A stretch of DNA of 64,000 bases from Thermodesulfobacteriota bacterium (lineage in GTDB: Bacteria; Desulfobacterota_D; UBA1144; Nemesobacterales; UBA2774), in contig OY729416.1 of assembly GCA_963422265.1 (NCBI GenBank), forward strand, positions 277,681 to 341,680. Reading direction: 5' to 3'. Under the pieces are notes generated by a model. It was not told the origin of the DNA and ran no database searches. It was given only the letters and a program-made list of their open reading frames with translations. This document shows, piece by piece, positions 4,191-46,042 of this stretch. The translations under genes and the position numbers were made by a program. How positions within the stretch are numbered: the stretch's first letter is position 1; each line of letters starts with the position of its first letter.

Positions 4191-4267
4191 TGGAACTGAG
4201 AGTCAAGTATTATTATAATATTTATTTAGGTATAGGACAATTTGGGTTTTCCTAAGGAGATTAGAGA

Positions 4268-5100: not shown

Positions 5101-5214
5101 TTAGTAGTGTCTCCCAATATTAGGAGGGCACCTCGCTTCATCTCACTGACGTAATAAGCAGATTTCAAGTAGCTAGCTCAATCTTTGGAACTAGTCAGGA
5201 TAGGCCTTAAAGCC

Positions 5215-5260
5215 GGGGAGGAGACGCTTTCCCCTCCCAGTTCTACTTTGTTTTTCTCGT
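5215..5260 (+). terminator. Weak hairpin gggagg/cctccc followed by a T-rich run
   Basis: ccggggaggagacgctttcccctcccagttctactttgtttttctc. Confidence 0.3.
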
Positions 5261-5272
5261 ATCTTAAAGGGC

Positions 5273-5707: not shown

Positions 5708-5929
5708 TTTAATTTCCTCCTGTCTAATTTTTTCTTGCTCATAATATAAACTTCTTTGAGGTATTGTCAAGGGTTTTTGTTCGCATCTGCACAATTCAAT
5801 TGTATAATAATTTAAGTAAGTTATGAGATTTTATCAATTTTTCTAAATGCGTATGCTGATTAAAGGGATATCGGCTATAGAAATCCTTGATAAACATTCC
5901 GACTATATATTCACTCAACCGTAACTAGA

Positions 5930-6600: not shown

Positions 6601-6693
6601 AAAGCTAAAAAAGGTCGGAGAGTAGAAGAAGGGGGATCCTACTCCACGTTTCCATAAGTATGTCGGCAAATGACCCTCCAATCTAGCCAATTA

Positions 6694-25742: not shown

Positions 25743-26220
25743 ATCGTCCCGCTAGTATTGTTTTCAGTAGAACATTATAACTAAGGCTGATGCTATTTTC
25801 ATGTCAGCAAGTGAGGAATTATAGCCAAAGGCTACTCTTACAGAAAGGGTTATTCTCGTAAAATTTAAAATAGAGGCATATAGAGGACTGTAACACAATA
25901 TAGCACCGTTTTTCTTACTTTGAGGATATTTTCAGTGAAAACGCGTTACTCTTAAACAACTGCTTGTGTAAGAAGTAGGATTTTCCTTTGGTTAAGATGA
26001 CAAAAGAGGAATCTAGTTTTTTGTTCTTTTATACATATTTGATTTTTATGGGAGATGTGTTGAATTTAGGGTGGAAGGATGGGGTATGATTTGCTCACTT
26101 TAGTGTGGTAAAACGATGAAAATGATAATGATATGGTGGTGGACCCTTAATGAATGTCAGTCCTTTTGACAAAGGCTTAGGAAGTTATTAAAGTAAAAGG
26201 TATTATGATTATAAAAGTTA

Positions 26221-26242
26221 CCCCCCCCCCCCCCCCCCCCCC
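26221..26242. repeat. Homopolymeric tract C22, 28 nt upstream of the TTG start of the giant adhesin gene
   Basis: 22 consecutive C read directly. A possible TTGACA-17-TAAAGT promoter at 26166-26194 would put the tract in the 5' leader. Confidence 0.9.
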
Positions 26243-26269
26243 GAAATTCCTGTCCGGCAGGACAACGCC

Positions 26270-28495
26270 TTGATACCTCGTCAACACCTGCGGCGCCTCG
26301 CCGCCACCCTCGGCCTGATCTTCTTTATCATCTGTGTCCTGCCGGGCACTGCACAGGCCGCCAAAGGCTTCACATTTTCCAAACACACGCTGACTCTGGC
26401 AGAACCTGGAGGACTCGGAGGACTGTCGAGCACAGACACCTACACCGTGAAACTGAGGGAACAACCGAGCGGGAACGTGACCGTAGCAATTAGGAGCGCA
26501 GATAGTACTCTAGTTACTGTGTCACTGGCCTCCATGACCTTTACCACCAGCAACTGGGACCAACCGCAGGAGGTAACCGTCACCGGTGTGGATGACCAAA
26601 TAGATTATGGCGATCAACAGTCCATTGTCATCCTGCATAGTCCGTCCGGTAGTGGCTACAGTTCCCAGCAGAACACTACTATAGCAGTGCGATATAACGA
26701 CAACGACACCGCCGGTATCACCATCACCGAGACCGGTGGCAGCACCGTCACCACCGAAGCCGGCGGCACCGACACCTTCACGGTCGTGCTGGACACCGAG
26801 CCGTTAGAGGATGTCAGCATCGCCGTATCCAGTTCCGACCCCAGTGAAGGTACGGTTGACAAGAGCAGCTTACGTATTCACCTTCGACAACTGGAATACC
26901 CCGCAGACCGTCACCGTCACCGGTCAGGATGACAACCTGGCCGACGGGGATCAATCCTATAACATCGTACTGGACAAGGTCGTCAGTTTAGATCCTCCCT
27001 ACGGCGGCGATACCCCAGCGAACGCCATAGACCCACCGGACGTGTCGGTGACCAACACCGATGATGACCCCGGCGTCACCTTATCCAAGAGAAGTGTCAC
27101 CGTCACCGAAGCCAGTGGCCGGGCGCACCACCACCTACACCGTAGTGCTCAACACCCGGCCGAGTAGTAGCGTCACCGTCACCCCCACCAGCAGCGATAC
27201 CAGCGTGGCCAGAGTCTCCCCGGGACCCCTGACGTTTACTTCATCCGACTGGAATACCCCACAGAGGGTCACCGTCACCGGTATCGATGACAGCACCGTT
27301 GCGGATAGAAGCACCACCATCACCCATGCAGCCTCTGGCGGCGGCTACAACGCAGTGAGCATCGCCGACGTGTCGGTAAAGCTGACCGATGACGACACCA
27401 GCTTCACATTTTCCACATCCAGTCTGTCTCTGGCAGAAACTGCTGGACTCGGAGGACTGTCGAACACAGGCAGCTACACCGTGAAACTGAATGGAGCACC
27501 AAATGCGGACGTGACCGTAACAGTCCGTAATAATTTCCCTGATGAAATCACCGTCTCCCCGGCCTCCCTGACCTTTACCACCAGCGACTGGAATACCGCC
27601 GCAAGGGTCACCGTCACCGTCTTGGATAACCAGGTCGATAATGGCGATCAACGTACCATTCTTGTCTGGCATTTGCCGTCCGGTGGTGGCTACGGTTCTC
27701 AGCAGAACACTAATATAACAGTGCTATATAACGACAACGACACCGCCGGCGTCACCGTCACCGAGACCGGTGGCAGCACTGCCACCACCGAAGCCGGCGG
27801 CACCGACACCTTCACGGTCGTGCTGAACACCAAGCCGTTAGAGGGTGTCAGAATCGCCGTATCCAGTTCCGACATCAGTGAAGGTACGGTTGACAAGAGC
27901 AGCCTGGTCTTCACCGATTCCAACTGGGATACGGTACAGACCGTCACCGTCACCGGTCAGGATGACAGCCTGGTTGACGGGGATCGAGCCTATAACATCG
28001 TACTGGCCAAGGTCGTCAGCACTGATACCAACTACCACGGCATTGACCCAGCGGACGTATCGGTGACCAACACCGATGATGACGCCGGCGTCACCGTTAT
28101 CCAAGATGCAGTGTCACCGTCACCGAAGCCAGTGGCAACAGTAATACCACCACCTACACTGTCGTACTGGACGCCCAACCCTCGGGCGAAGTCACCGTCA
28201 CCCTCACCAGCGGCGATACCAGCGTGGCCAGAGTCTCCCCGGCCTCCCTGACCTTTACCACCAGCGACTGGAATACCGCACAGCAAGTCACCGTCACCGG
28301 TATCGATGACAGCACCGTTGCGGATAGAAGCACCACCATCACCCATGCAGCCTCTGGCGGCAGCTACAACGCAGTGGTCATTCCCAGTGTCGTGTCACCC
28401 TGACCGATGACGACACCAGCTTCACATTTTCCACATCCAGTCTGTCTCTGGCAGAAGGTGGACTCGGAGGACGGCCGAACACAGGCAGCTACACC
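26270..28495 (+). pseudogene. 5' portion of the giant adhesin gene (signal peptide plus Ig/Calx-like beta-sandwich domains), split across three overlapping ORFs by frameshifts
   Basis: ORFs 26270..26932, 26811..27167 and 27061..28251 encode contiguous homologous domains in different frames. Signal peptide MIPRQHLRRLAATLGLIFFIICVLPGTAQA. 27400-28410 is near-identical to the in-frame copy at 28410-29420 apart from indels such as the one at ~28105. Confidence 0.55.
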
Positions 28496-31400
28496 GTGAA
28501 ACTGAATGGAGCACCAAATGCGGACGTGACCGTAACAGTCCGTAATAATTTCCCTGATGAAATCACCGTCTCCCCGGCCTCCCTGACCTTTACCACCAGC
28601 GACTGGAATACCCCGCAGAGGGTCACCGTCACCGTCTTGGATAACCAGGTCGATAATGGCGATCAACGTACCATTCTTGTCTGGCATTTGCCGACCGGTG
28701 GTGGCTACGGTTCTCAGCAGAACACTAATATAACAGTGCAATATAACGACAACGACACCGCCGGCGTCACCGTCACCGAGACCGGTGACAGCACTGCCAC
28801 CACCGAAGCCGGCGGCACCGACACCTTCACGGTCGTGCTGAACACCGAGCCGTTAGAGGGTGTCAGAATCGCCGTATCCAGTTCCGACATCAGTGAAGGT
28901 ACGGTTGACAAGAGCAGCCTGACCTTCACCGCAGCCAACTGGGATACGGTACAGACCGTCACCGTCACCGGTCAGGATGACAGCCTGGTTGACGGGGATC
29001 GAGCCTATAACATCGTACTGGCCAAGGTCGTCAGCACTGATACCAACTACCACGGCATTGACCCAGCGGACGTATCGGTGACCAACACCGATGATGACGC
29101 CGGCGTTACGTTATCCAAGAGCAGTGTCACCGTCACCGAAGCCAGTGGCAACAGTAATACCAACACCTACACTGTAGTACTGGACGCCCAACCCTCGGGC
29201 ACCGTCACCGTCACCCTCACCAGCGGCGATACCAGCGTGGCCAGAGTCTCCCCGGCCTCCCTGACCTTTACCACCAGCGACTGGAATACCGCACAGCAAG
29301 TCACCGTCACTGGGGTGGACGACAGCACCGATGAGGACCGCAGCACCACCATCACCCATACAATCAGTGGTGGGGGATACGGCTCAGTGAGCATAGCCGA
29401 CGTCGCCGTCACCCTGACCGATGACGATACCGCCCGCGTCACGCCGCCGAGCAAGCCCACCGGACTCGAGGCAGTGGGGGGCGACAGTCAGGTGACGTTG
29501 ACCTGGAATAATCCGAATAACGCCGCCATCACCGGGTATCAGATCAGGCAGCGGAGTTATGTCAACGGGGCATGGACTAAATTTCCTAAATTTTCTAACA
29601 TAATACCGGGCAGTGATGCCAGCACCACTAGCCACGTGGTGAGTGGTCTGACCAACGGCGTGAGGTATAGTTTCCAAATCCGTGAGATGGTGGGCAAAAA
29701 GGGAGGGAAACCGTCTGAGGCCAAAGCGACACCGGCGGCCCCGCCACCGCCGAAACCGAGCAAGCCCACCGGCCTCAGGACAGTAGCAGGGAACAATCAG
29801 GCGACGTTGATCTGGAATAATCCGAATAACGCCGCCATCACCAAGTATCAGTATAAGCAGTGGAATTCATCGTCTACCGAGAGCGGCGCGAAGTGGGCTG
29901 ACATACCGGGCAGTGATGCGAACACCACCAGCTACGTGGTGAGTGGTCTGACCAACACCTCTGTTATCTATAGATTCCGCATCCGTGCGGTGGCAGGCCC
30001 CTCTGTCGGGCTTCAGTCCAGCTCTGCCGGTGCGATCATTGCGGTACCGCCTGCTGCGCCTGTCGTGACGGCGACGCCGGGCGACGCTCAGGTGAGGTTA
30101 AGTTGGTCGGGGAGCATAGGCTATTATATCACCAGGTATCAGATCAAGCAGTGGACGGGCAGTAGCGAGCCGGCCAATGGCTGGAAGGACATTCCCGGGA
30201 GTCGATCGAGCACCACCAGCCACGTGGTTAGGGGTCTGACCAGCGGCGTGAGTTACAGTTTCCGCATCCGTGCGGTGGCAACATGTAGTTTTAATTCTGG
30301 GAGATTCATAGCTTCTGATTGCAGCGTTGCGGGGACGCCGTCCACTCCCGTCAGTCCGACGCTTGTGCCGGGCAAGCCTGTCGTGGCGCCAATGCCGGGC
30401 GACGCTCAGGTGACGTTGAGTTGGAGTAATCCGAATGATGTTGCCATCACCAAGTATCAGATCAAGCAGTGGACTGGCAGTAGCGAGAGTGGGAGCTGGA
30501 CTGACATATCGGGGAGTGGATCGAGCACCACCAGCCATGTGGTGAGTGGCCTGACCAGCGGCGTGAGGTATAGTTTCCGTATTCGTGCGGTGGCAGGTAC
30601 CAATGTTGCAGGGACGCCGTCCGATCCCGTCAGGGCAGTACTCCTGGACAAGCCTGTCGTCAGTGCCAGTGCGGGCGACACTCTGGTGACGTTGAGTTGG
30701 AGTGATCCGAATGACGATTCCATCACCAGGTATCAGATCAAGCAGTGGACTGGCAGTAGCGAGAGAGGGCGTTGGACTGACATATCGGGGAGTGGATCGA
30801 GCACCACCAGCCTCGTGGTGGGGCGCCTGACCAACGGCGTGAGGTATAGTTTCCGTATCCGTGCAATGGTGGGTCTTTTCCCGGGGGTGGAGTCAGCTTC
30901 CGTCAGTTCGACGCCTGTGCCGGGCAAGCCTGCCGTGACGGCGACGCCGGGCACCGCTCAGGTGACGTTAAGCTGGAGTAATCCGAATGATGCTTCCATC
31001 GCCAGGTATCAGATCAAGCAGTGGACTGGCAGTAGCGAGAGTGGGAGTTGGACTGACATATCGGGGAGTGGGGAGGACACCACCAGCCACGTGGTGAGGG
31101 GTCTGACCAACGGCGTTGAGTATAGTTTCCGTATCCGTGCGGTGACAGGTACCAACGCTTCAGGGACGCCGTCCGATCCCGTCAGTGAGACGCCAGCGGT
31201 ACAGCCGGACAAGCCTGCTGTTACAGCGGCGCCGGCGGGCGACAGTCTGGTGAGGTTGAGTTGGAGTAATCCGAATGACGCTTCCATCACCGGGTATCAG
31301 ATCAAGCGGTGGACTGGCAGTAGCGAGAGTGGGAGTTGGACTGACATATCGGGGAGTGGGAAGGACACGATCACATACACGGTACCGGGTCTGACCAACG

Positions 31401-34400
31401 GCGTTGAGTATAGTTTCCGTATCCGTGCGATGGCAGGTCGTGTTCCAGGGATGGAGTCGGATGTCGCCAGCGCGACGCCTGTGGCAGACAAGCCTATCGT
31501 TACGGCGACGCCGGGCAACGCTCTGGTGACGTTAAGCTGGAGTAATCCGAATGACGCTTCTATCACCGGGTATCAGATCAAGCAGTGGACTGGCAGTAGC
31601 GAGAGTGGGAGTTGGACTGACATATCGGGGAGTGGGGAGGACACCATCAGCCACGTGGTGAGTGGTCTGACCAACGGCGCCAGGTATGGTTTCCGTATCC
31701 GTGCGATGGTAGGCGCTGTTACAAGGACGCCGTCCGATCCCGTCAGTGCGACGCCTGTGTCGCCGCCTGTCGGACTCACGGCGACGCCGGGAGACTCTCA
31801 GGTGACGTTGACCTGGAATAATCCGAACAATCCCACCATCACCGGGTATCAGCTCAAAAAGTATCGTTTCACGATTGAGACCGGTTTTAACGAGGGTTCT
31901 TGGACTGACATACCAGGGAGTGGAAAGGACACCACCAGCTACGTGGTAACGAGTCTGACCAACGGCGCCAGGTATGGTTTCGAGATTCGTGCGGTGGTAG
32001 GCAGTGTTACAGGAGAGGAGTCCGAGTTCGTGCCCGTCACCCTGAGCAGCATCTTCACCATTACCGGGACGGTGACCCAGGGAGAGACACTGACCGCGGA
32101 TACCAGCACGATCTCCGACCCCGACGGCCCGAAGAGTCTGACGTTCACCTACCAATGGAAGCGCGGCGGGACTGCCATAGGCGGTGCCACCGGCCGCACC
32201 TACGTTCTGACGCAGGCCGACGTCGGGAAGGCTATCACCGTCATCGTGAGCTGGACCAATGCTCGTGGGACATTAAAGTCTCTCACCTCGACTGCGACTG
32301 CGAACGTGGCGAACGTGAATGAATCACCAACCGGGGCCGTTACCATCACCGGCACCGCCACCAGGGGACAGACGTTGACTGCGGATACCAGCACGATCGT
32401 CGACCCGGACGGCCCTGCCCGTCTGACGTTCACCTATCAATGGAATCGCGGCGGGACTGCCATAGGCGGTGCCACCGGCCGCACCTACGTTCTGACGCCG
32501 GCCGACGTCGGGAAGGCCATCAGCGTCACCGTGAGCTGGACCGATGCTGGCAGCACCGCGGAGTCATTCATCTCTGCTGCTACCACGAGTGTAACAAACA
32601 CCAACCAATCACCGACCGGGGCCGTCGCCATCACCGGCACCGCCACCCAGAAGCAGACACTGACCGCGGTTACCAGCACGATCGTCGACCCGGACGGCCC
32701 CAGCAGTCTAACGTTCAGCTACCAGTGGAACCGCGATGGGTCTGCCATCAGCAGTGCCACCGGCAGCACCTACGTGCTGACGCAAGCCGACGTCGGGGCC
32801 AAGATCACCGTCACCGTGAGCTGGACCGATGCTGGCAGCACCGCGGAGTCGTTCAACTCTGCTGCGACGGCGAAGGTGGCGAACGTGAATGACCTGCCGA
32901 CCGGGGCCGTCACCATCACCGGCACCGTCACCCAGAAGCAGACGTTGACCGCGGTGACCAGCACGATCTCCGACCCGGACGGCCCGAGTAATTTGGTTTT
33001 TAGCTATCAATGGAAGCGAGATGGGAATAACATCAGCAGCGCCACCGGCCGCACCTACGTTCTGACGCAGGCTGACGTCGGGAAGGCCATCATCGTCACC
33101 GTGAGCTGGACCGATGCTTATGGGGCATCAGAGTCTCTCACCTCTGCTGCGACAGCGAAGGTGGTGAACGTGAACGACCGGCCGACCGGGGCCGTCACCA
33201 TCACCGGCACCCCCATCCAGGGACAGATACTGACCGCGGACACCTCCGGCATTTCCGACCCGGACGTCCCTGACACTGACAGTCTGACCTTTACCTACCA
33301 GTGGACGCGTGGCCCGGATACTGTCAGCCGCACCAGCACTTACACCCTGACGCAGGCTGACGTCGGGGAGATCATCACCGTAGTCGTGGCTTATCAAGAT
33401 GGTGGGCGTAGGCAGCTTTTCCTTGCTAGAACTCCAAAGGTAGCGAACCTAAACGACGCACCGACCGGGGCCGTTACCATCACCGGCACCCCCACCCAGG
33501 GAGAGACACTGACCGCGGTGACCAGCACGATCTCCGACCCGGATGGCCCGAGTGATTTGGTGTTCAGCTACCAGTGGAAGCGCGATAGGATTGCCATCAG
33601 CAGCGCCACCGGCAGCACCTACACCCTGACGCAAGCCGACGTCGGGAAGGCCATCAGCGTCATTGTGAGCTGGACCGATGCTGGCAGCACCGCGGAGACC
33701 CTCACCTCTGTTGCTACCGCGAGTGTAACCAACATAAACGACTCACCGACCGGCAGCGTCACCATCACCGGCACCGTGACCCAGGGCCAGACACTGACCG
33801 CAGACACCTCCGGCATCTCCGACCCCGACGGCCCCGCCAGTCTGACCTTCAGCTACCAATGGAAACGCGATGGGTCTGACATCAGCAGTGCCACCAGTAG
33901 AACCTACATTCTGACGCAAGCCGACGTCGGGAAGGCCATCAGCGTCACCGTCAGCTGGACCGATGCCGGCAGCATCGTGGAGACCCTCACCTCTGCTGCG
34001 ACAGCGAACGTAGCGAACCTAAACGACTCGCCGACCGGTAGCGTCACCATCAGCGGCACGGTGACCCAGGGCCAGACCCTGACCGCAGTGACCAGCACGA
34101 TCGTCGACCCGGACGGCCCGGCCAGTCTGACCTTCAGCTACCAATGGAAACGCGATAGCACTGACATCAGCAGTGCCACCAGTAGAACCTACATTCTGAC
34201 GCAAGCCGACGTCGGGAAGGCCATCACCGTCATCGTGAGTTGGACCGATGCCGGCAGCATCGTGGAGACCCTTACCTCGACTGCGACAGCGAAGGTGGCG
34301 AACATGAATGACCCGCCGACCGGGGCTGTCACCATCAGCGGCACCGTGACCCAGGGCCAGACCCTGACCGCGGTGACCAGCACGATCGTCGACCCCGACG

Positions 34401-37400: not shown

Positions 37401-39310
37401 AGACCCTTACCTCGACTGCGACAGCGAAGGTGGCGAACATGAATGACCCGCCGACCGGGGCTGTCACCATCAGCGGCACCGTGACCCAGGGCCAGACCCT
37501 GACCGCGGTGACCAGCACGATCGTCGACCCCGACGGCCCCAGCAGTCTAACCTTCACCTACCAATGGAACCGTGGCGGGAATCCCATCAGCAGCGCCACC
37601 GGCAGCACCTACACCCTGACACAAGCCGACGTCGGTAAGGCCATCAGCGTCACCGTGAGTTGGACCGATGCCGGCAGCATCGTGGAGACCCTCACCTCGG
37701 CGGCGACAGCGAACGTAACCAACGCGAACGATCCGCCGACCGGGGCGGTCACCATCACCGGCACCGTGACCCAGGGCCAGACACTGACCGCAGACACCTC
37801 CGGCATCTCCGACCCCGACGGCCCCAGCAATCTGACGTTCACCTACCAATGGAAGCGCGATGGGTCTGACATCAGCAGTGCCACCAGTAGAACCTACGTT
37901 CTGACGCAGGCCGACGTCGGGAAGGCCATCAGCGTCATTGTGAGCTGGACCGATGCTGGCAGCACCGCGGAGACCCTCACCTCTGCTGCGACAGCGAACG
38001 TAACCAACGCGAACGATCCGCCGACCGGGGCTGTCACCATCACCGGCACCGTGACCCAGGGCCAGACACTGACCGCGGATACCAGCACGATAGTTGACCC
38101 CGACGGCCCCGCCAATCTGACGTTCACCTACCAATGGAAGCGCGATGGGTCTGACATCAGCAGTGCCACCAGTAGAACCTACGTTCTGACGCAGGCCGAC
38201 GTCGGGAAGGCCATCAGCGTCATTGTGAGCTGGACCGATGCTGGCAGCACCGTGGAGACCCTCACCTCTGCTGCGACAGCGAACGTAACCAACGCGAACG
38301 ATCCGCCGACCGGCAGCGTCACCATCAGCGGCACCGTGACCCAGGGCCAGACCCTGACCGCGGATACCAGCACGATAGTTGACCCCGACGGCCCCGCCAG
38401 TCTGACGTTCACCTACCAATGGAAGCGCGATGGGTCTGACATCAGCAGTGCCACCAGTAGAACCTACATTCTGACGCAAGCCGACGTCGGGAAGGCTATC
38501 ACCGTCATCGTGAGCTGGACCGATGCCGGCAGCATCGTGGAGACCCTTACCTCGGCGGCGACAGCGAAGGTGGTGAACGTGAACGACCCGCCGACCGGCA
38601 GCGTCACCATCACCGGCACCGTGACCCAGGGCCAGACACTGACCGCGGATACCAGCACGATAGTTGACCCCGACGGCCCCGCCAGTCTGACGTTCACCTA
38701 CCAATGGAAGCGCGATGGGTCTGACATCAGCAGTGCCACCAGTAGAACCTACGTTCTGACGCAGGCCGACGTCGGGAAGGCCATCAGCGTCATTGTGAGC
38801 TGGACCGATGCTGGCAGCACCGTGGAGACCCTCACCTCTGCTGCGACAGCGAACGTAACCAACGCGAACGATCCGCCGACCGGCAGCGTCACCATCAGCG
38901 GCACCGTGACCCAGGGCCAGACCCTGACCGCGGATACCAGCACGATAGTTGACCCCGACGGCCCCGCCAATCTGACGTTCACCTACCAATGGAAGCGCGA
39001 TGGGTCTGACATCAGCAGTGCCACCAGTAGAACCTACGTTCTGACGCAGGCCGACGTCGGGAAGGCCATCAGCGTCATTGTGAGCTGGACCGATGCTGGC
39101 AGCACCGTGGAGACCCTCACCTCTGCTGCGACAGCGAACGTAACCAACGCGAACGATCCGCCGACCGGCAGCGTCACCATCAGCGGCACCGTGACCCAGG
39201 GCCAGACCCTGACCGCGGATACCAGCACGATAGTTGACCCCGACGGCCCCGCCAGTCTGACGACCTACCAATGGAAGCGCGATGGGTCTGACATCAGCTG
39301 CCACCAGTAG
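28496..39310 (+). CDS. Giant repetitive surface adhesin-like protein, main 3604-aa ORF: beta-sandwich domains, 11 fibronectin type III domains, then about 25 tandem 95-aa repeats
   Basis: Continuous 10.8-kb ORF. FN3 consensus P..L.A..GD.QVTLSW..PND..ITGYQIKQW......W.DI.GS...TTS..V.GLTNGV.YSFRIRAV. 95-aa unit PTGAVTITGTVTQGQTLTADTS.I.DPDGP..LTF.YQWKR.G..ISSAT..TY.LTQADVGK.I.V.VSWTD.GS..E.L.S.AT..V.N.ND. Confidence 0.8.
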   Translation: MKLNGAPNADVTVTVRNNFPDEITVSPASLTFTTSDWNTPQRVTVTVLDNQVDNGDQRTILVWHLPTGGGYGSQQNTNITVQYNDNDTAGVTVTETGDSTATTEAGGTDTFTVVLNTEPLEGVRIAVSSSDISEGTVDKSSLTFTAANWDTVQTVTVTGQDDSLVDGDRAYNIVLAKVVSTDTNYHGIDPADVSVTNTDDDAGVTLSKSSVTVTEASGNSNTNTYTVVLDAQPSGTVTVTLTSGDTSVARVSPASLTFTTSDWNTAQQVTVTGVDDSTDEDRSTTITHTISGGGYGSVSIADVAVTLTDDDTARVTPPSKPTGLEAVGGDSQVTLTWNNPNNAAITGYQIRQRSYVNGAWTKFPKFSNIIPGSDASTTSHVVSGLTNGVRYSFQIREMVGKKGGKPSEAKATPAAPPPPKPSKPTGLRTVAGNNQATLIWNNPNNAAITKYQYKQWNSSSTESGAKWADIPGSDANTTSYVVSGLTNTSVIYRFRIRAVAGPSVGLQSSSAGAIIAVPPAAPVVTATPGDAQVRLSWSGSIGYYITRYQIKQWTGSSEPANGWKDIPGSRSSTTSHVVRGLTSGVSYSFRIRAVATCSFNSGRFIASDCSVAGTPSTPVSPTLVPGKPVVAPMPGDAQVTLSWSNPNDVAITKYQIKQWTGSSESGSWTDISGSGSSTTSHVVSGLTSGVRYSFRIRAVAGTNVAGTPSDPVRAVLLDKPVVSASAGDTLVTLSWSDPNDDSITRYQIKQWTGSSERGRWTDISGSGSSTTSLVVGRLTNGVRYSFRIRAMVGLFPGVESASVSSTPVPGKPAVTATPGTAQVTLSWSNPNDASIARYQIKQWTGSSESGSWTDISGSGEDTTSHVVRGLTNGVEYSFRIRAVTGTNASGTPSDPVSETPAVQPDKPAVTAAPAGDSLVRLSWSNPNDASITGYQIKRWTGSSESGSWTDISGSGKDTITYTVPGLTNGVEYSFRIRAMAGRVPGMESDVASATPVADKPIVTATPGNALVTLSWSNPNDASITGYQIKQWTGSSESGSWTDISGSGEDTISHVVSGLTNGARYGFRIRAMVGAVTRTPSDPVSATPVSPPVGLTATPGDSQVTLTWNNPNNPTITGYQLKKYRFTIETGFNEGSWTDIPGSGKDTTSYVVTSLTNGARYGFEIRAVVGSVTGEESEFVPVTLSSIFTITGTVTQGETLTADTSTISDPDGPKSLTFTYQWKRGGTAIGGATGRTYVLTQADVGKAITVIVSWTNARGTLKSLTSTATANVANVNESPTGAVTITGTATRGQTLTADTSTIVDPDGPARLTFTYQWNRGGTAIGGATGRTYVLTPADVGKAISVTVSWTDAGSTAESFISAATTSVTNTNQSPTGAVAITGTATQKQTLTAVTSTIVDPDGPSSLTFSYQWNRDGSAISSATGSTYVLTQADVGAKITVTVSWTDAGSTAESFNSAATAKVANVNDLPTGAVTITGTVTQKQTLTAVTSTISDPDGPSNLVFSYQWKRDGNNISSATGRTYVLTQADVGKAIIVTVSWTDAYGASESLTSAATAKVVNVNDRPTGAVTITGTPIQGQILTADTSGISDPDVPDTDSLTFTYQWTRGPDTVSRTSTYTLTQADVGEIITVVVAYQDGGRRQLFLARTPKVANLNDAPTGAVTITGTPTQGETLTAVTSTISDPDGPSDLVFSYQWKRDRIAISSATGSTYTLTQADVGKAISVIVSWTDAGSTAETLTSVATASVTNINDSPTGSVTITGTVTQGQTLTADTSGISDPDGPASLTFSYQWKRDGSDISSATSRTYILTQADVGKAISVTVSWTDAGSIVETLTSAATANVANLNDSPTGSVTISGTVTQGQTLTAVTSTIVDPDGPASLTFSYQWKRDSTDISSATSRTYILTQADVGKAITVIVSWTDAGSIVETLTSTATAKVANMNDPPTGAVTISGTVTQGQTLTAVTSTIVDPDGPSSLTFTYQWNRGGNPISSATGSTYTLTQADVGKAISVIVSWTDAGSTAETLTSAATANVTNANDPPTGAVTISGTVTQGQTLTADTSGISDPDGPSNLTFTYQWKRDGSDISSATSRTYILTQADVGKAITVIVSWTDAGSIVETLTSAATANVANLNDSPTGSVTISGTVTQGQTLTAVTSTIVDPDGPASLTFSYQWKRDSTDISSATSRTYILTQADVGKAITVIVSWTDAGSIVETLTSTATAKVANMNDPPTGAVTISGTVTQGQTLTAVTSTIVDPDGPSSLTFTYQWNRGGNPISSATGSTYTLTQADVGKAISVTVSWTDAGSIVETLTSAATANVTNANDPPTGAVTITGTVTQGQTLTADTSTIVDPDGPASLTFSYQWKRDSTDISSATSRTYILTQADVGKAITVIVSWTDAGSIVETLTSAATANVANLNDSPTGSVTISGTVTQGQTLTAVTSTIVDPDGPASLTFSYQWKRDSTDISSATSRTYILTQADVGKAITVIVSWTDAGSIVETLTSTATAKVANMNDPPTGAVTISGTVTQGQTLTAVTSTIVDPDGPSSLTFTYQWNRGGNPISSATGSTYTLTQADVGKAISVTVSWTDAGSIVETLTSAATANVTNANDPPTGAVTITGTVTQGQTLTADTSTIVDPDGPASLTFSYQWKRDSTDISSATSRTYILTQADVGKAITVIVSWTDAGSIVETLTSTATAKVANMNDPPTGAVTISGTVTQGQTLTADTSGISDPDGPSNLTFTYQWNRGGNPISSATGSTYTLTQADVGKAISVTVSWTDAGSIVETLTSAATANVTNANDPPTGAVTITGTVTQGQTLTADTSTIVDPDGPASLTFSYQWKRDSTDISSATSRTYILTQADVGAAISVAVSWTDAGSIVETLTSDATANVANLNDSPTGSVTISGTVTQGQTLTAVTSTIVDPDGPASLTFSYQWKRDSTDISSATSRTYILTQADVGAAISVAVSWTDAGSIVETLTSTATAKVANMNDPPTGAVTISGTVTQGQTLTAVTSTIVDPDGPSSLTFTYQWNRGGNPISSATGSTYTLTQADVGKAISVTVSWTDAGSIVETLTSAATANVTNANDPPTGAVTITGTVTQGQTLTADTSGISDPDGPSNLTFTYQWKRDGSDISSATSRTYVLTQADVGKAISVIVSWTDAGSTAETLTSAATANVTNANDPPTGAVTITGTVTQGQTLTADTSTIVDPDGPANLTFTYQWKRDGSDISSATSRTYVLTQADVGKAISVIVSWTDAGSTVETLTSAATANVTNANDPPTGSVTISGTVTQGQTLTADTSTIVDPDGPASLTFTYQWKRDGSDISSATSRTYILTQADVGKAITVIVSWTDAGSIVETLTSAATAKVVNVNDPPTGSVTITGTVTQGQTLTADTSTIVDPDGPASLTFTYQWKRDGSDISSATSRTYVLTQADVGKAISVIVSWTDAGSTVETLTSAATANVTNANDPPTGSVTISGTVTQGQTLTADTSTIVDPDGPANLTFTYQWKRDGSDISSATSRTYVLTQADVGKAISVIVSWTDAGSTVETLTSAATANVTNANDPPTGSVTISGTVTQGQTLTADTSTIVDPDGPASLTTYQWKRDGSDISCHQ
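29440..32040 (+). repeat. Array of 11 FN3-domain-coding repeats, about 270-290 bp each, moderately diverged
   Basis: Periodic protein motif in the 28496..39310 ORF. Confidence 0.75.
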
Positions 39311-40140
39311 AACCTACATTCTGACGCAAGCCGACGTCGGGAAGGCTATCACCGTCATCGTGAGCCGCATCGTGGAGACCCTTACCTCGGCGGCGACCGA
39401 AGGTGGTGAACGGAACGACCCGCGACCGGCAGCGTCACCATCACCGGGTGACCCAGGGCCAGACACTGACGGATACCAGCACGATAGTTGACCCCGACGG
39501 CCCCGCCAGTCTGACGTTCACCTACCAATGGAAGCGCGATGGGTCTGACATCAGCAGTGCCACCAGTAGAACCTACGTTCTGACGCAGGCCGACGTCGGG
39601 AAGGCCATCAGCGTCATTGTGAGCTGGACCGATGCTGGCAGCACCGCGGAGACCCTCACCTCTGCTGCGACAGCGAACGTAACCAACGCGAACGATCCGC
39701 CGACCGGGGCTGTCACCATCACCGGCACCGTGACCCAGCAATCTGACGTTCAGCTACCAATGGAAGCGCGATGGGTCTGACATCAGCAGTGCCACCAGTA
39801 GAACCTACGTTCTGACGCAGGCCGACGTCGGGAAGGCCATCAGCGTCATTGTGAGCTGGACCGATGACCGCGGAGACCCTCACCTCTGATGCGACAGCGA
39901 ACGTAACCAACGCGATCCGCCGACCGGGGCGGTCACCATCACCGGCACCGTGACCCAGGGCCAGACACTGACACCTCCGGCATCTCCGACCCCGACGGCC
40001 CCAGCAATCTGACGTTCAGCTACCAATGGAAGCGCGATGGGTCTGACATCAGCAGTGCCACCAGTAGAACCTACGTTCTGACGCAGGCCGACGTCGGGAA
40101 GGCCATCACCGTCACCGTCAGCTGGACCGACAGCGGCGGT
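32040..40140 (+). repeat. Tandem 285-bp (95-aa) repeat array A, about 28 units including 855-bp higher-order repeats that are near-identical at the DNA level
   Basis: Antisense ORFs recur at exact 285- and 855-bp spacing (e.g. 33904, 34759, 35614). Long stretches (33961-34250 versus 34816-35105) are identical. Confidence 0.85.
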
Positions 40141-40254
40141 ACCGCGGAGACCCTCACCTCTGCGGCTACTTCGGTCGCCGGCGTCACGTTATCCACGAGA
40201 GCGGTCACCGTCACCGAAGCCAGTGGCAGCAGTAATACCAACACCTACACCGTA
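39230..40254 (+). pseudogene. Degenerate or collapsed segment of repeat array A: several short ORFs in different frames. Relative to neighbouring copies it differs by many 1-17 nt deletions and almost no substitutions.
   Basis: E.g. cagacactgacacctccggc versus canonical cagacactgaccgcagacacctccggc; tgagccgcatcgtggagaccc versus tgagctggaccgatgccggcagcatcgtggagaccc. Confidence 0.5.
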
Positions 40255-43200
40255 GTGCTCGACACCCAACCCTCGGGCAACGTCACCGTCACGCCCACCA
40301 GCGGCGATAGCGACGTGGCGACCGTATCCCCGGTCTCCCTGACGTTTACCACGAGCAACTGGAGTACGGCACAGATCGTCACCGTCACCGGTGTGGACGA
40401 CAGCAGCGATGGTGATAGAAGTACCACCATCACCCATGCAGCCTCTGGTGGTGGCTACGACTCAGTGGTCATTGCCAGCGTCAGTGTAACGCTGACCGAT
40501 GACGACACCGCCGGTGTCACCGTGTCCGAGAGCGGTGTCACGGTAACCGAAGCCAGTGGCAGCAGTAATACCAACACCTACACCGTAGTACTCAACACCC
40601 GGCCGAGTGGCAACGTCACCGTCACGCCGACCAGCGGCGATACCAATGTGGCGACCGTATCTGGGGCCCTGACCTTTACCACCAGCAACTGGAGTACGGC
40701 ACAGTCCATCACCGTCACCGGTGTGGACGACAGCAGCGATGGTGATAGAAGCACCACCATCACCCATGCAGCCTCTGGCGGCGGCTACAACGCAGTGGTC
40801 ATCTCCGACGTAGCGGTAACGCTGACCGATGACGACACCGCCGGTGTCACCGTGTCCGAGAGCAGCGTCACGGTAACCGAAGCCAGTGGCAGCAGTAATA
40901 CCAACACCTACACCGTAAAACTTAACACCCGGCCGAGTGGCACCGTCACCGTCACGCCCACCAGCGGCGATAGCGACGTGGCGACCGTATCCCCGGTCTC
41001 CCTGACGTTTACCACGAGCAACTGGGGTACGGCACAGTCCATCACCGTCACCGGTGTGGACGACAGCAGCGATGGGGATAGAAGCACCACCATCACCCAT
41101 GCAGCCTCTGGCGGCGGCTACAACGCAGTGGTCATCTCCGACGTAGCGGTAACGCTGACCGATGACGATAACAACTCGCCGACGGGTTCGGTAACCATTA
41201 CTGGGGCGGCGACGCAGGGGCAGAGGCTTACGGCAGATACCAGCACGATCGTTGATCCAGACGGTCCGAGTAATCTGACGTTCAGCTATCAATGGAAGCG
41301 GGGCGGGACTGACATCAGCGGGGCGACCAGTAGCACCTACGTTCTAACACAGGCGGACGTCGGTTCTATGATCACAGTAGTAGTGAGTTGGACGGACAGC
41401 GGTAGTACAGTGGAATCTCTGACCTCTGCTGCTACAGCAAGTGTAGCGAACTTAAACGACTTGCCGACTGGTGCAGTAACCATTACGGGGACGGTGACGC
41501 AGGGGCAGACACTGACCGCGGATACCGGCACGATTGTTGACCCAGACGGTCCGAGTAATCTGACGTTCAGCTATCAATGGAAGCGGGGTGGGACTGATAT
41601 CAACGGGGCGACCAGTAGCACCTACGTTCTGACACAGGCGGACGTAGGTTCTGTGATCACAGTAGTAGTGAGTTGGACGGACGCTGGTGGGGCATCGGAA
41701 TCCCTCACCTCTGCTGCTACAGCAAGTGTGGCAAACACCAACAACTTGCCGACTGGTGCAGTAACCATTACTGGGACGGTGACGCAGGGGCAGACGCTTA
41801 CGGCGGATACCGGCACGATCGTTGATCCAGACGGTCCGAGTAGTCTGACGTTCAGCTATCAGTGGAAGCGAGGTGGGACTGATATCAGCGGGGCGACCAG
41901 TAGCACCTACGTTCTGACACAGGCGGACGTCGGTTCTGTGATCACAGTAGTAGTGAGTTGGACGGACAGCGGTAGTACAGTGGAGACTCTTACCTCTGCT
42001 GCTACAGCAAGTGTAGCGAACGTAAACGACTTGCCGACTGGTGCGGTAACCATCACCGGGACGGCGACCCAGGGCCAGACACTGACCGCGGATACCAGCA
42101 CGATTGTTGACCCAGACGGTCCGAGTAATCTGACGTTCAGCTATCAGTGGAAGCGAGGTGGGACTGACATCAGCGGGGCGACCAGTAGCACCTACGTTCT
42201 GACACAGGCGGACGTCGGTTCTGTGATCACAGTAGTAGTGAGTTGGACGGACAGCGGTAGTACAGTGGAGACTCTTACCTCTGCTGCTACAGCAAGTGTA
42301 GCGAACGTAAACGACTCGCCGACTGGTGCAGTCACCATCACCGGCACGGCGACCCAGGGCCAGACACTGACCGCGGATACCAGCACGATCGTTGATCCAG
42401 ACGGCCCGAGTAATCTGACGTTCAGCTATCAATGGAAGCGAGGTGGGACTGACATCAGCGGCGGCGCCAGTAGCACCTACGTTCTGACACAGGCGGACGT
42501 CGGGGCGGCAATCACCGTCACTGTGAGCTGGACTGACGCTGGTGGGGCATCGGAATCTCTTACCTCTGCTGCTACAGCAAGTGTAGCGAACGTAAACGAC
42601 TTGCCGACTGGTGCGGTAACCATTACGGGGACGGCAACCCAGGGGCAGACACTGACCGCGGATACCAGCACGATTGTTGACCCAGACGGTCCGAGTAATC
42701 TGACGTTCAGCTATCAATGGAAGCGGGGTGGGACTGACATCAGCGGGGCGACCAGTAGCACCTACATTCTGACACAGGCGGACGTCGGTTCTGTGATCAC
42801 AGTAGTAGTGAGTTGGACGGACGCTGGTGGGACATCGGAATCCCTCACCTCTGCTGCTACAGCAAGTGTAGCGAACGTAAACGACTTGCCGACTGGTGCG
42901 GTAACCATTACGGGGACGGCAACCCAGGGGCAGACGCTTACAGCGGATACCGGCACGATCGTTGATCCAGACGGTCCGAGCAGTCTGACGTTCAGCTATC
43001 AATGGAAGCGAGGCGGGACTGATATCAACGGGGCGACCAGTAGCACCTACATTATGACACAGGCGGACGTCGGTTCTGTGATCACAGTAGTAGTGAGTTG
43101 GACGGACAGCGGTAGTACAGTGGAATCTCTGACCTCTGCTGCTACAGCAAGTGTAGCGAACGTAAACGACTCGCCGACTGGTGCGGTAACCATTACGGGG

Positions 43201-45618
43201 ACGGCGACCCAGGGCCAGACACTGACCGCGGATACCGGCACGATTGTTGACCCAGACGGTCCGAGTAATCTGACGTTCAGCTATCAATGGAAGCGAGGCG
43301 GGACTGACATCAGCGGCGCCACTACTAGCACCTACGTTCTGACACAGGCGGACGTAGGTTCTGTGATCACAGTAGTAGTGAGTTGGACGGACGCTGGTGG
43401 GGCATCGGAATCTCTTACCTCGACTGCCACTGCGAAGGTGATTAACATCAGCGGTGCTGACTCTGGCACGATTATTGATGTAGTAGAGGACGGTGGTCGC
43501 AGCATCATCACGGCAACGGTTGACGAGACGGCTGTGAAGCTGACGCTGCCATCTGGACACGGCGTGACGGAGATTGAGTTTTCACCGGCGGCGCCCACTG
43601 TTACTGAGCCGTCGGGCGTGAGCTTTGGGGGTAAACCGTCTTACGTGGATATAGATCTGGACGTGGAGCTCTCGTCATCATCAAGTGCCATCGTCTGTCT
43701 GGAGGAGCCCGAAGAGCTGTCAGGTAATCTATCGGTATATCATCTTGCCGATGTAGAAGGTGCGGGGTGGAGGAAGCTGCCGTCGCCTGCATCGGTGCCC
43801 AGCGGTTATGTATGCGGTAAAACGAGTAGTTTTTCTACTTTTGTATTGGGTTCGCCAAAGCCGACTTTCGGTTCAGAATCCATTGGGGACTATGTCTGGA
43901 CGGTTGGTGTGGAAGTTGTTGATGTTGTTCTACCTGAGGCTACTGGTGGTGACGGTGTTATTACCTACAGTCTGAGACCGTCTCTACCATTGGATCTTAA
44001 GTTTAATGATGATTCTCCTCGCGCTATCACTGGCAAGCCGACTGAGGCGTTAGCTAAGACGAAGTTCACCTACAAGGCTGAGGACGTAGATGGCGATACA
44101 AGTGAGTTGTCATTTAGCATAACGGTTCGTGCAGCCGAGGAAAAGGAGCGAGCGCGTGTTCTTTCTGTAGTGTTAGCTTCTTTTGGACGGGCAGCTGCAA
44201 CCGGAGCGGTGGACGTAATAGGTGAACGTTTTGTTTCTTCTTCTTCTCTGGCAGGTAGTCCTAAATTGACATTGGGTGGTGTTTCTATGACATCGTTTGA
44301 CACTCGTTCTGTGGCAGGAGCTGTGGATGGGGTGTTGGGTCTGAGTGGTGGTTCAGATATTGAATTGTTGGAGGGTTTAGATCGAGAGCCTGTTGAGTTA
44401 CGGCGTGTTTCTGGGAGGGATTTGTTTGCGCAGAGCGAATTTTCTATTCCTTTGAGTAGTAGTGGTGATATGGGAGGAGTGATGCGAGGTTGGACGTTAT
44501 GGGGCAGTGGTGCGGGTAGTGGATTTTCTGGTAGTAATTTGGATGGAGATATAGATACAGAGGGTGAGTTGTATACGGGCTACATGGGATTGGACTATAG
44601 GTTTGGTAATAGGGGTTTGGCGGGAGTAGCGATATCTCGTAGTGTTGGAGAGGTGGACTATGAGGTGGATGGTAGCTTTCATCTTATGGGTGGAGAGACA
44701 GGTAGTATCCGAGGGGAGGTAGATTTGGAGTTGACGAGCGTTCTTCCATATGCGCACTACACTATTCGTCCTGGTCTTAGTATATGGGGTTTGTTTGGAG
44801 CGGGTATAGGCGATATTGAGTTGGAGGATGGGGCAGGAGAAGTAGAGGCGGACGTAAATATGCTGATGGTAGCGTTGGGAGTGCGTCAGGAGTTGGCTAG
44901 ATGGGGAGATATAGATTTTGGGTTAAAGAGTGATGGTTTTGCAGTGCAGTTAAAGACAGAGGGGGTGGAAGGTCTTTCTGGTGTTAGTGGAGTAGCGCGT
45001 CGTTTGCGATTAGGTTTAGAGATGAGCCGTGACGTGTATGTGACAGGAGATTCTTTGTTGCTACCAAGTGTGGAGATAGGGGGGCGATGGGACGGCGGAG
45101 ATGCGGATAGTGGAGTAGGTATGGAGGTAGGCGGAGGTATAGAGTATGTTCATAGAGGTTTGGGTTTGAGCGTGGAGGTTCGAGGGAGGTATTTGTTGTT
45201 TCATGAGGAGTCTGAGTTTGAGGATTGGGGAGGTAGTTTTTCATTGCGGATGGGTGATGGAGTTCGGGGGCGTGGATTGTGGTTGAAGTTTGAGCCTGAG
45301 TGGGGTGAGGTAGCGAGTGGAGTAGAGCGAATGTGGCGAGGTGAGGTTGATAGTGGGTTAGGAGTAGGGAAGCGGGGTTTATCTCCTGGGCGTGTGAAGT
45401 TTGACGTTGGATATGGTATGGAGACGCGAGGTAGTGGGTGGCTTGTAACGCCGTATAGTGGCGTATCTATTATGAGGGAGGGGGAGCGCGAGTATAGGTT
45501 GGGTGGCAAGGTAGGTGTAGGGGAGTGGATGGATATAAGTTTGGAGGGGGAGCGTCGAGAGGTTTCTAATGGAGTTGTGGATCACGGAATACTATTATGG
45601 TGGAAGCTGTTATTGTAG
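40255..45618 (+). CDS. C-terminal 1787-aa ORF of the giant adhesin: 3 beta-sandwich domains, 8 more 95-aa repeats (array B), a cadherin-like domain and a C-terminal autotransporter-like beta-barrel
   Basis: Frame is open from 39891; the first start codon is a GTG at 40255, inside a domain. The tail GWTLWGSGAGSGFSGSNLDGDIDTEGELYTGYMGLDYRFGNRGLAGVAISRS has a type Va beta-domain-like pattern. YSLRPSLPLDLKFNDDSPRAITGKPTE..FTYKAEDVDGDTS resembles He_PIG/dystroglycan-type cadherin domains. Confidence 0.75.
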   Translation: MLDTQPSGNVTVTPTSGDSDVATVSPVSLTFTTSNWSTAQIVTVTGVDDSSDGDRSTTITHAASGGGYDSVVIASVSVTLTDDDTAGVTVSESGVTVTEASGSSNTNTYTVVLNTRPSGNVTVTPTSGDTNVATVSGALTFTTSNWSTAQSITVTGVDDSSDGDRSTTITHAASGGGYNAVVISDVAVTLTDDDTAGVTVSESSVTVTEASGSSNTNTYTVKLNTRPSGTVTVTPTSGDSDVATVSPVSLTFTTSNWGTAQSITVTGVDDSSDGDRSTTITHAASGGGYNAVVISDVAVTLTDDDNNSPTGSVTITGAATQGQRLTADTSTIVDPDGPSNLTFSYQWKRGGTDISGATSSTYVLTQADVGSMITVVVSWTDSGSTVESLTSAATASVANLNDLPTGAVTITGTVTQGQTLTADTGTIVDPDGPSNLTFSYQWKRGGTDINGATSSTYVLTQADVGSVITVVVSWTDAGGASESLTSAATASVANTNNLPTGAVTITGTVTQGQTLTADTGTIVDPDGPSSLTFSYQWKRGGTDISGATSSTYVLTQADVGSVITVVVSWTDSGSTVETLTSAATASVANVNDLPTGAVTITGTATQGQTLTADTSTIVDPDGPSNLTFSYQWKRGGTDISGATSSTYVLTQADVGSVITVVVSWTDSGSTVETLTSAATASVANVNDSPTGAVTITGTATQGQTLTADTSTIVDPDGPSNLTFSYQWKRGGTDISGGASSTYVLTQADVGAAITVTVSWTDAGGASESLTSAATASVANVNDLPTGAVTITGTATQGQTLTADTSTIVDPDGPSNLTFSYQWKRGGTDISGATSSTYILTQADVGSVITVVVSWTDAGGTSESLTSAATASVANVNDLPTGAVTITGTATQGQTLTADTGTIVDPDGPSSLTFSYQWKRGGTDINGATSSTYIMTQADVGSVITVVVSWTDSGSTVESLTSAATASVANVNDSPTGAVTITGTATQGQTLTADTGTIVDPDGPSNLTFSYQWKRGGTDISGATTSTYVLTQADVGSVITVVVSWTDAGGASESLTSTATAKVINISGADSGTIIDVVEDGGRSIITATVDETAVKLTLPSGHGVTEIEFSPAAPTVTEPSGVSFGGKPSYVDIDLDVELSSSSSAIVCLEEPEELSGNLSVYHLADVEGAGWRKLPSPASVPSGYVCGKTSSFSTFVLGSPKPTFGSESIGDYVWTVGVEVVDVVLPEATGGDGVITYSLRPSLPLDLKFNDDSPRAITGKPTEALAKTKFTYKAEDVDGDTSELSFSITVRAAEEKERARVLSVVLASFGRAAATGAVDVIGERFVSSSSLAGSPKLTLGGVSMTSFDTRSVAGAVDGVLGLSGGSDIELLEGLDREPVELRRVSGRDLFAQSEFSIPLSSSGDMGGVMRGWTLWGSGAGSGFSGSNLDGDIDTEGELYTGYMGLDYRFGNRGLAGVAISRSVGEVDYEVDGSFHLMGGETGSIRGEVDLELTSVLPYAHYTIRPGLSIWGLFGAGIGDIELEDGAGEVEADVNMLMVALGVRQELARWGDIDFGLKSDGFAVQLKTEGVEGLSGVSGVARRLRLGLEMSRDVYVTGDSLLLPSVEIGGRWDGGDADSGVGMEVGGGIEYVHRGLGLSVEVRGRYLLFHEESEFEDWGGSFSLRMGDGVRGRGLWLKFEPEWGEVASGVERMWRGEVDSGLGVGKRGLSPGRVKFDVGYGMETRGSGWLVTPYSGVSIMREGEREYRLGGKVGVGEWMDISLEGERREVSNGVVDHGILLWWKLLL
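41160..43440 (+). repeat. Tandem 285-bp repeat array B (8 units). Same protein repeat as array A but with a different synonymous codon set.
   Basis: E.g. ccgaccggggccgtcaccatcaccggcacc (A) versus ccgactggtgcggtaaccattacggggacg (B); both encode PTGAVTITGT. Confidence 0.8.
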
Positions 45619-45633
45619 AAAGAATAAAGATTA

Positions 45634-45668
45634 AATCCCCCCCCCTTCCCTTTACAAAAGGGGGGATT
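45634..45668 (+). terminator. GC hairpin aatccccccccc...ggggggatt just after the giant gene stop. The loop is long and no U-tract follows.
   Basis: C9 at 45637-45645 and G6 at 45660-45665. Confidence 0.3.
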
Positions 45669-45744
45669 GTATAGGGAATGAACTCTCGTCCCCCGATGCT
45701 CTATCTGGATTCCTAGTCGAGCTGGTAATGATGGGCAAGTTGGT

Positions 45745-45925
45745 AATGACGGGTTGTTAAAAGCTGTTAGAACTAGCTATTCTCTTTCATTTTCCATCTT
45801 TTTTCTGTTACTTTCTCGGCACTTTTCTTTAACTTTTCTATTCATTTTCTATCCTTTTTATCTCTTTTCTTTAACGTGGTAAGCACGTCTCTATGAGGCA
45901 TGTCCTCATAATAATTTAAGCTCTC
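45745..45925. repeat. About 170-bp dispersed repeat element, copy B, inverted relative to copy A at 4925-5100
   Basis: The reverse complement aligns with 4925-5100, including the ccacgttaaagaaaag and atgaaagagaatagctagtt ends. Confidence 0.65.
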
Positions 45926-46042
45926 TTGGGTGGCAAATATGACGTCGCTAATTGAGGCCTAATTAAGGCGGCAGACGCTTTCCTTTCAACTCCCACTAGG
46001 TTAAACTTGCTTATCAATAGGATATAAAAATTGAGGAGGTAA

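Follow-up and report, generated by a model that had tools for sequence, protein, structure and literature searches.

What kind of protein is encoded at positions 26270-45618 of the stretch of contig OY729416.1 analysed here (64,000 nucleotides in all, hereafter the window), and how did a gene come to be built from parts of such different composition? The sequence makes it probable that the locus consists of a single gene, which encodes a giant cell-surface adhesin with the plan of a classical (type Va-like) autotransporter. The gene is a natural mosaic, in which the 5' 17 kb have a foreign, NNC-rich codon usage, while the 3' 2.2 kb, encoding the anchor, have a native composition. As it stands, either the gene has recently become a pseudogene or its assembly is damaged locally.

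Between 26192 and 45618 the + strand does not carry a single open reading frame (ORF) but seven overlapping stop-free segments in alternating frames: 26192-26932 (frame f1), 26808-27167 (f2), 27052-28251 (f0), 28083-28403 (f2), 28328-39310 (f1; 3,660 codons), 39364-39780 (f0) and 39907-45618 (f0; 1,903 codons). The translations of these segments continue one another as identical domain types, which indicates a single gene with frame lesions and not an operon. The limits given to the locus by an earlier reading of the same letters (the original prediction) were confirmed, in that a TTG at 26270 starts the ORF of the signal peptide and the final ORF stops at 45618. Its description as a giant multi-module surface adhesin is likewise supported, as hidden Markov model (HMM) matches, two structure models and intact relatives are concordant.

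The domains were mapped by seed-based phmmer searches against all three frames, with Tandem Repeats Finder (TRF) as an independent method, and all those described in this paragraph and the next lie on the + strand. The protein is predicted to begin with a Sec-type signal peptide (26270-26359; TTG start, AGGA 7 nucleotides (nt) upstream), whose sequence, (M)IPRQHLRRLAATLGLIFFIICVLPGTAQA/A, was read directly and aligned to relatives; n-, h- and c-regions and an AQA/A cleavage motif are recognizable. The N-termini called for two intact relatives, P0277 (MKPRQPLRHLAAALGLILYIICVLPVAAQ) and P0281 (TTG start, on contig L084), align at this signal peptide and share the form MKPRQ(H/P)LRHLAA(T/A)LGLI.... 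The passenger that follows comprises 58 tandem beta-sandwich domains, namely 12 immunoglobulin (Ig)/Calx-like domains, nine fibronectin type III (FN3) domains and 37 Ig domains of the A9 type, together with a domain of ~140 amino acids (aa) and a cadherin-like domain. Nine of the Ig/Calx-like domains form three X-Y-Z modules of ~1 kb each (26366-29431), and are followed by the FN3 domains (29450-32029; Pfam fn3 E 5.1e-75 in nine stretches, nine phmmer matches that tile the span, TRF 276 bp x5.5). Array 1 (32033-40176) contains 29 units of a 95-aa (285-bp) Ig repeat of the AIR9-A9/ZirU type (Pfam IG_AIR9 E 6.8e-89; TRF 285 bp x27.1), for which the NCBIfam model ZirU_fam scores 680 bits in 25 stretches; the Pfam values for fn3 and IG_AIR9 were obtained with the large fragment of the gene. 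Three Z-type Ig/Calx-like domains with a 330-bp period (40177-41169; TRF, phmmer) separate it from array 2 (41170-43449; TRF 285 bp), with eight units of the 95-aa repeat at 74-82% identity to those of array 1. The ~140-aa domain (43450-43863) carries two Cys, is conserved in alignments with the relatives P0001, P0275 and P0276, and has no Pfam family at E <= 0.01; a He_PIG/cadherin-like beta-sandwich (43864-44130) completes the passenger. The original prediction had thus been right about the Sec signal peptide, the roughly 12 Ig/Calx-like domains, the division of the 95-aa repeat into two arrays and the cadherin-like domain; its count of about 36 repeat copies becomes 37 (29 + 8), and its 11 FN3 domains are reduced to nine.

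The C-terminal region starts with a conserved alpha-helix of 34 residues (44134-44235; EKERARVLSVVLASFGRAAATGAVDVIGERF), for which the alignment columns are nearly invariant across 16 relatives. It continues with a Gly/Ser-rich linker that is predicted to be disordered (44236-44436), and ends in an outer-membrane beta-barrel of the autotransporter type (44437-45618), with ~390 aa to position 45615 and then the stop codon. An AlphaFold2 (AF2) model of the last 584 aa, built with 15 homologs (mean predicted local distance difference test score (pLDDT) 69.7), reproduces this order, with the helix at residues 91-124 (pLDDT ~80-87), the linker at residues 125-186 (pLDDT <50) and then the barrel. 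The barrel of the original prediction is seen both in the structure model and in the Pfam search, where the last 472 aa match PF03797 (Autotransporter) with 27.7 bits against a cut-off of 26. By its sequence the C-terminal domain is of the autotransporter type, and relatives reach 38-51 bits with PF03797 (best 50.7), over up to profile positions 1-209 of 255. Passenger and translocator lie on a single polypeptide in P0281 and P0277, and on separate frames in the window.

Certain observations weigh against the assignment to type Va. The Pfam match of the window barely exceeds the threshold and covers profile positions 1-103 of 255 only. The C-terminus is WWKLLL instead of the usual terminal F or W; the window and its closest relatives end in ...GILLWWKLLL, and a terminal W or F is found in more distant members of the family. 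By its motifs the passenger would probably bind Ca2+: the D-rich inter-domain motifs NDNDT, NTDDD and LTDDD are the candidate sites, and such binding would stiffen the rod. There are also differences in structure from the classical type Va proteins AIDA-I, Hbp, NalP and BrkA. Their passengers are beta-helices, whereas that of the window consists of beta-sandwich domains; the barrel segment of the window is ~110 residues longer than the Pfam model and was assigned 16-18 strands by DSSP, at moderate confidence, where 12 strands with the helix in the pore are expected for type Va; and its helix is parted from the barrel by a disordered linker of ~60 residues.

It may be asked whether the protein belongs to another secretion class. 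Giant adhesins with Ig repeats are classically substrates of type I secretion systems (T1SSs), and the 95-aa repeats match ZirU_fam, so that an RTX adhesin secreted by a T1SS, an inverse autotransporter (type Ve, Zir-like) and a two-partner substrate were all weighed; together they are considered improbable, and were rejected. The Pfam search gave no RTX/HemolysinCabind (PF00353) match at E <= 0.01 and no POTRA or TPS match, PF03797 was the sole barrel family above its cut-off, and the protein has both a Sec signal peptide and a C-terminal barrel, the latter fused to the passenger in intact relatives, which argues against a two-partner (type Vb) arrangement. The giant T1SS adhesin LapA (PMC7616799) and SiiE-type proteins resemble the protein of the window in functional design, a long rod of ~100-aa Ig-like repeats with Ca2+-type linkers that would project an adhesive tip; unlike them, it has Sec and C-terminal barrel features and neither RTX repeats nor a T1SS signal. 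With ZirU/ZirS of Salmonella and intimin/invasin (type Ve) it shares Ig-like extracellular modules and the ZirU-like repeat unit, but nothing else, since its barrel is C-terminal and fused, whereas Zir comprises several proteins, among them a separate transporter whose barrel is N-terminal. The 95-aa unit is also similar in sequence to the A9 domain of AIR9 (PF23197; the E of 6.8e-89 being summed in Pfam) and to Ig-like domains of phage tails (9ncf_S, at 1.3e-10, and 9c2d_S), although these belong to a plant microtubule protein and to phage tails and not to a bacterial surface protein. For the cadherin-like domain, the modules of SraP (PDB 4m00-4m03) and He_PIG domains offer a comparison, SraP being a Gram-positive, serine-rich adhesin anchored by sortase. 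If the autotransporter assignment holds, and by what is known of the family, the signal peptide would take the chain through Sec, the barrel would be inserted into the outer membrane with the help of the beta-barrel assembly machinery, and the conserved helix and linker would thread outward a passenger expected to form a flexible rod of tandem beta-sandwich domains.

The relatives of the anchor were collected by an exhaustive HMMER search with the helix plus barrel as query, in which counts refer to cluster representatives. The barrel family includes 6,869 representatives at E <= 1e-3, of which 2,293 remain at E <= 1e-30, and in the matches listed the aligned part reaches to, or close to, the C-terminus. 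Among the best 150 of the 6,869, 45 have at least 2,000 aa, 12 have at least 4,000 aa, and the longest has 6,192 aa. P0281 (3,586 aa) and P0277 (2,524 aa) are intact in a single ORF, with a signal peptide close to that of the window and a C-terminal barrel. P0281 also carries modules of the window type, which indicates that the architecture is genuine; its gene adjoins mutS on L084, in flanks of ~44% guanine plus cytosine (GC), and uses a TTG at the codon equivalent to 26270. L084 also encodes Fae and genes resembling those of the tetrahydromethanopterin pathway. On these data, neither the size nor the domain combination is exceptional, and the family is large and uncharacterised. The protein had been called one of the largest that a bacterium can make, a rank that is not sustained in view of these relatives and of BigE, the largest autotransporter reported, with 10,429 aa (Celik et al., PMC3419190). 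The combination of FN3 domains with a giant type V passenger, held to be unusual, is so only with respect to experimentally characterised autotransporters; among metagenomic proteins, passengers with FN3 and Ig domains on the barrel of the window are common.

Passengers in this family are highly variable. The fn3, IG_AIR9, Calx-beta and He_PIG domains occur in varied orders among relatives, and even three close relatives with the barrel type of the window (P0275, 97% barrel identity; P0276, 94%; P0001, 89%) each have a passenger order of their own. The content of the passenger therefore turns over much faster than the anchor. Contig L083 (1-7823; ENA ERZ21742408 ctg3125l), from a related strain, has two autotransporter genes in tandem: the end of the first and the spacer downstream are 95-97% identical to window positions 44302-46072, an SDR gene is then cut off ~30 nt past its start, and the second copy, which encodes P0276, follows with a barrel 96% identical to that of the first. 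Protein searches with the N-terminal region and with the A9 repeat yielded short fragments alone, none above 58-72% identity, and neither a donor nor a full-length ortholog was among them. Exact-pattern scans of Joint Genome Institute (JGI) metagenomes for the poly-C junction described below and for a conserved 28-mer of the barrel gave no match.

The mosaic structure is apparent from base composition. From ~26243 to 43450 GC is 0.55-0.64, against 0.41-0.47 in the flanks, and in the passenger GC at codon position 3 (GC3) is 0.60-0.80 (0.65-0.80 in most parts) and C at codon position 3 (C3) is 0.28-0.56 (0.52-0.56 in most). Array 2 marks the lower end of these ranges, with GC3 of 0.60 (range 0.57-0.63) and C3 of 0.28. 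Across the last 2.2 kb, which include the mid domain, He_PIG and the barrel, the values are native-like: GC3 and C3 are 0.48 and 0.18 in the mid region and 0.42 and 0.06 in the barrel, and 0.39-0.48 and 0.16-0.25 in neighbouring genes. The foreign, C-rich composition ascribed to the whole locus in the original prediction is accordingly true of ~26243-43450, and not of the 3' end, which resembles the neighbouring genes. In window 44001-46000 there is a G-over-C skew of +0.44, and the C3 of 0.06 is more extreme than that of neighbouring + strand genes (0.16).

An abrupt 5' boundary of composition, located at a homopolymer (the GC-rich module begins at a poly-C tract), might suggest that the GC-rich 17 kb are a metagenomic mis-join, by which DNA of a high-GC organism ended up in a low-GC contig; a contig with 70% GC (L082) does indeed contain A9-type repeats with identities of up to 72%, and relatives of the barrel family are present in genomes with 67% GC. 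This is, nonetheless, very improbable. The flanks are native on both sides, and the protein searches revealed no donor with more than 72% amino-acid identity. Two independent contigs, L083 and L084, with flanks of ~44-50% GC, share both the GC-rich modules and the poly-C junction, and in L083 an equal fall of GC3 takes place inside a single open frame of 1,892 codons. P0001, moreover, joins FN3 and Y-type domains to a barrel 82% identical to that of the window in a single ORF. The drop within one frame of L083 and the ORF of P0001 render a chimeric assembly, named at the outset as what could undo the case, unlikely. An Illumina poly-G artefact that joined two contigs was also rejected, as the junction recurs with different lengths in two independent contigs. 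The L084 paralog is GC-rich throughout, including its own barrel, which has ~48-52% amino-acid identity to that of the window, and the two passengers are 83-90% identical in nucleotides over multi-kb stretches. Most simply, a GC-rich autotransporter gene would have entered the lineage, and its 5' part, from the C tract onwards, would then have been joined by recombination to a resident anchor; a possible alternative explanation of the composition is GC-biased gene conversion within the repeats.

The lesions that interrupt the mosaic gene lie in two clusters. The first (26.87-28.39 kb) includes +1 shifts at 26872, ~27116, 28096 and 28108 and a -1 shift at 28394, mapped by aligning the three ~1-kb X-Y-Z modules and by comparison with the intact paralog of L084; its net frame change is zero, so that f1 is the frame of both the signal peptide and the segment of 3,660 codons. 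The second corresponds to units 26-29 of array 1 (39152-40176) and has deletions only, which, mapped against sibling repeats, are of 3, 2, 15, 2 and 1 nt, of 1, 4 and 3 nt, of 53, 8 and 2 nt, and of 7 nt in the successive units; the deletion-bearing units are otherwise near-identical to their intact neighbours. This cluster moves the frame to f0, and hence the barrel is not read in the frame of the signal peptide. As assembled, then, the contiguous ~6,400-aa chain envisaged in the original prediction does not exist: at least nine frame lesions part the signal peptide from the barrel, and translation from 26270 stops at 26932 after 220 aa, giving at best a secreted stub. Annotation pipelines will break such a gene into several 'hypothetical proteins'.

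Is the damage in the organism or in the assembly? The ratio of nonsynonymous to synonymous substitution rates (dN/dS) relative to related copies is 0.18 in the barrel alone and 0.35 across mid domain, He_PIG and barrel, values which show that purifying selection acted on the anchor until recent times. Taken with the near absence of substitutions beside the deletions, this selection on the barrel implies that the damage is either very recent or an artefact of assembly. It is a serious, if tentative, possibility that the gene is intact, that its frameshifts are consensus errors arising from mis-aligned reads of near-identical repeats, and that the cell makes the ~6,400-aa protein. The confinement of the lesions to 26.87-28.39 and 39.15-40.0 kb, with ~11 kb between them and 5.7 kb after them clean, agrees with this view, as do the selection on the barrel and the zero net frame change of the first cluster; also, the difference between units 26-28 and their intact neighbours, consisting of deletions of 1-53 nt and very few substitutions, is atypical of neutral decay. 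Array 1 is difficult to assemble, as it contains units 100% identical and 855 bp apart and its copy number may be heterogeneous. Units 8-25 form a higher-order repeat of three units (855 bp; 34022-38011), in which units 11 and 14, and units 12, 15 and 20, are 100% identical. Very recent unequal crossing-over is suggested by this pattern, which also leaves the copy number doubtful in any assembly. Without spanning reads, the count of units in the arrays should not be trusted. A true pseudogene is favoured, on the other hand, by the absence of frameshifts in ~45 kb of flanking genes, which indicates good overall consensus quality, and by the location of the first cluster in modules with no more than ~89-95% identity, where substitutions occur close to the indels. 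Furthermore, the close relatives with the barrel type of the window (P0001, P0275 and P0276) all three start in the middle of a domain and lack a signal peptide, and the second copy of L083 carries a TAA substitution within the signal-peptide codons.

The 5' edge of the mosaic deserves separate consideration, as it may also be a site of control. The poly-C tract (26221-26242, + strand) has 22 C, lies 28 nt upstream of the TTG start and is the only homopolymer of more than 9 nt in the 64 kb; the original prediction had not named it. It is preceded on the same strand by a weak candidate for a sigma-70-like promoter (26166-26194; TTGACA-17-TAAAGT, 10/12 matches in a consensus scan only) and, at 26195-26220, by AAAAGG and an ATG (26205) with five further codons (MIIKVT), read directly, that run into the tract. 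This ATG and the signal-peptide ORF are in different frames when the tract has 22 C, whereas a tract of 23 or 20 C would join them. The tract followed by GAAATTCCTGTYCGGCA is also present in the second copy of L083 (18 C, 2050-2067) and in L084 (27 C, 9947-9973), and the homology of the window to both begins exactly at the tract. These two copies have, before the tract, a conserved GGAGG-N6-ATG leader that encodes MNQ(P/L)(Q/R)NFFN(P/T)LNHVPVLR...; among the copies, only in that with 18 C is the upstream ATG in frame with the start codon. In L084 a heptanucleotide repeat, (AATTCCC)3(AATTCCT)2 plus variants, lies at 9735-9790, just upstream of a promoter-like region, and could vary in length. 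P0320 (6,192 aa; barrel identity 44%) has PPPPPPPP at residues 38-45, and poly-C may precede its gene; this is the sole case of poly-Pro near the N-terminus among the 150 best matches.

A long homopolymer 5' of a gene for a surface protein, with 18, 22 or 27 C among related copies, shows two features expected of a contingency locus. The meningococcal autotransporters NalP and MspA phase-vary by means of homopolymeric tracts (PMC3723659), and Lav of H. influenzae is a phase-variable autotransporter with GCAA repeats (PMC9022572). As in these genes, the window has a long simple-sequence tract 5' of an autotransporter gene, polymorphic in length between copies; by analogy, its tract would most likely turn expression on and off through slipped-strand mispairing. 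Differences are that the tract (18-27 C) lies before the called TTG and after a short leader with a Shine-Dalgarno sequence and ATG, and that the host is not a known pathogen but belongs to an uncultured, deep-branching environmental lineage. Two further facts count against a switch: homopolymer lengths in assemblies are unreliable, and ON and OFF states are unreadable from the tract; and the called TTG start, which has its own AGGA, follows the tract, so that a switch might act on transcription or on translation, or might not exist. Candidate levels of control could be translation (by an N-terminal extension through poly-Pro), transcription, or the structure of the 5' untranslated region.

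The genes around the locus are intact. Upstream, on the - strand, are infB, pnp, miaA and two genes of the cytochrome-c-maturation type, and downstream are SDR, apbC and nuoM. At 45637-45666, 19 nt past the stop codon, a C9...G7 hairpin is a probable terminator; its equivalent after the L083 barrel copy (L083 1339-1366) is C9...G10, and the hairpin itself consists of two homopolymers. Rfam and tRNA scans found no non-coding RNA in the locus, and antisense ORFs of 207-702 aa in the repeats, which lack family support, were rejected as artefacts of stop-poor, GC-rich repeats. Elsewhere in the window, 3330-6690 is AT-rich (GC 0.37) with only small ORFs of 56-173 aa, and may represent a small-gene or accessory-gene islet; it is flanked by a 523-aa protein with a signal peptide and by a 476-aa ORF of the fumarase/aspartase type. 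The polynucleotide phosphorylase (21253-23382) has a best match of just 57% identity among 185,579 species genomes (Binatia, Geobacteraceae and Nitrospiraceae metagenome-assembled genomes), which would place the host in a poorly sampled deep lineage.

What, then, does the locus add to the biology of giant adhesins? The reading as a giant adhesin is sound but ordinary for metagenomic data; it is the mosaic, the C tract and the possibly non-canonical barrel that stand out. New here are a mosaic codon usage that is foreign in the passenger only, a C tract conserved in position and variable in length as a candidate for phase variation, and a passenger domain order that differs between close relatives. 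The locus offers an example of the evolution of a giant adhesin, in which modules with foreign codons are set on a native anchor with a hypermutable C tract at the graft point, the amplification of repeats is recent enough for 100% identity, and domain order is reshuffled between strains with barrels 89-97% identical. A far-reaching reading, which we regard as rather unlikely, is that these proteins would represent a large subclass of type V secretion, in which an expanded barrel (of perhaps 16-18 strands) with a detached conserved helix is specialised for the export of kilobase-long chains of Ig-like domains, and in which, in this lineage, a 5' cassette bounded by poly-C, with the signal peptide and the passenger modules, is exchanged between paralogous anchors, so that adhesin or antigen would vary and be switched by a homopolymer; if true, this would be a contingency-locus system in an uncultured environmental bacterium with a small genome. 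The passengers of characterised classical autotransporters are almost all beta-helical, EstA being the only solved exception (PMC9289746), and models for the secretion of classical autotransporters lean on the folding of the beta-helix. The window locus and its thousands of relatives have passengers of up to ~6,000 aa formed only by Ig-like domains, on a longer barrel, and if such passengers are exported by the type Va route, they would provide a test of the generality of that mechanism.

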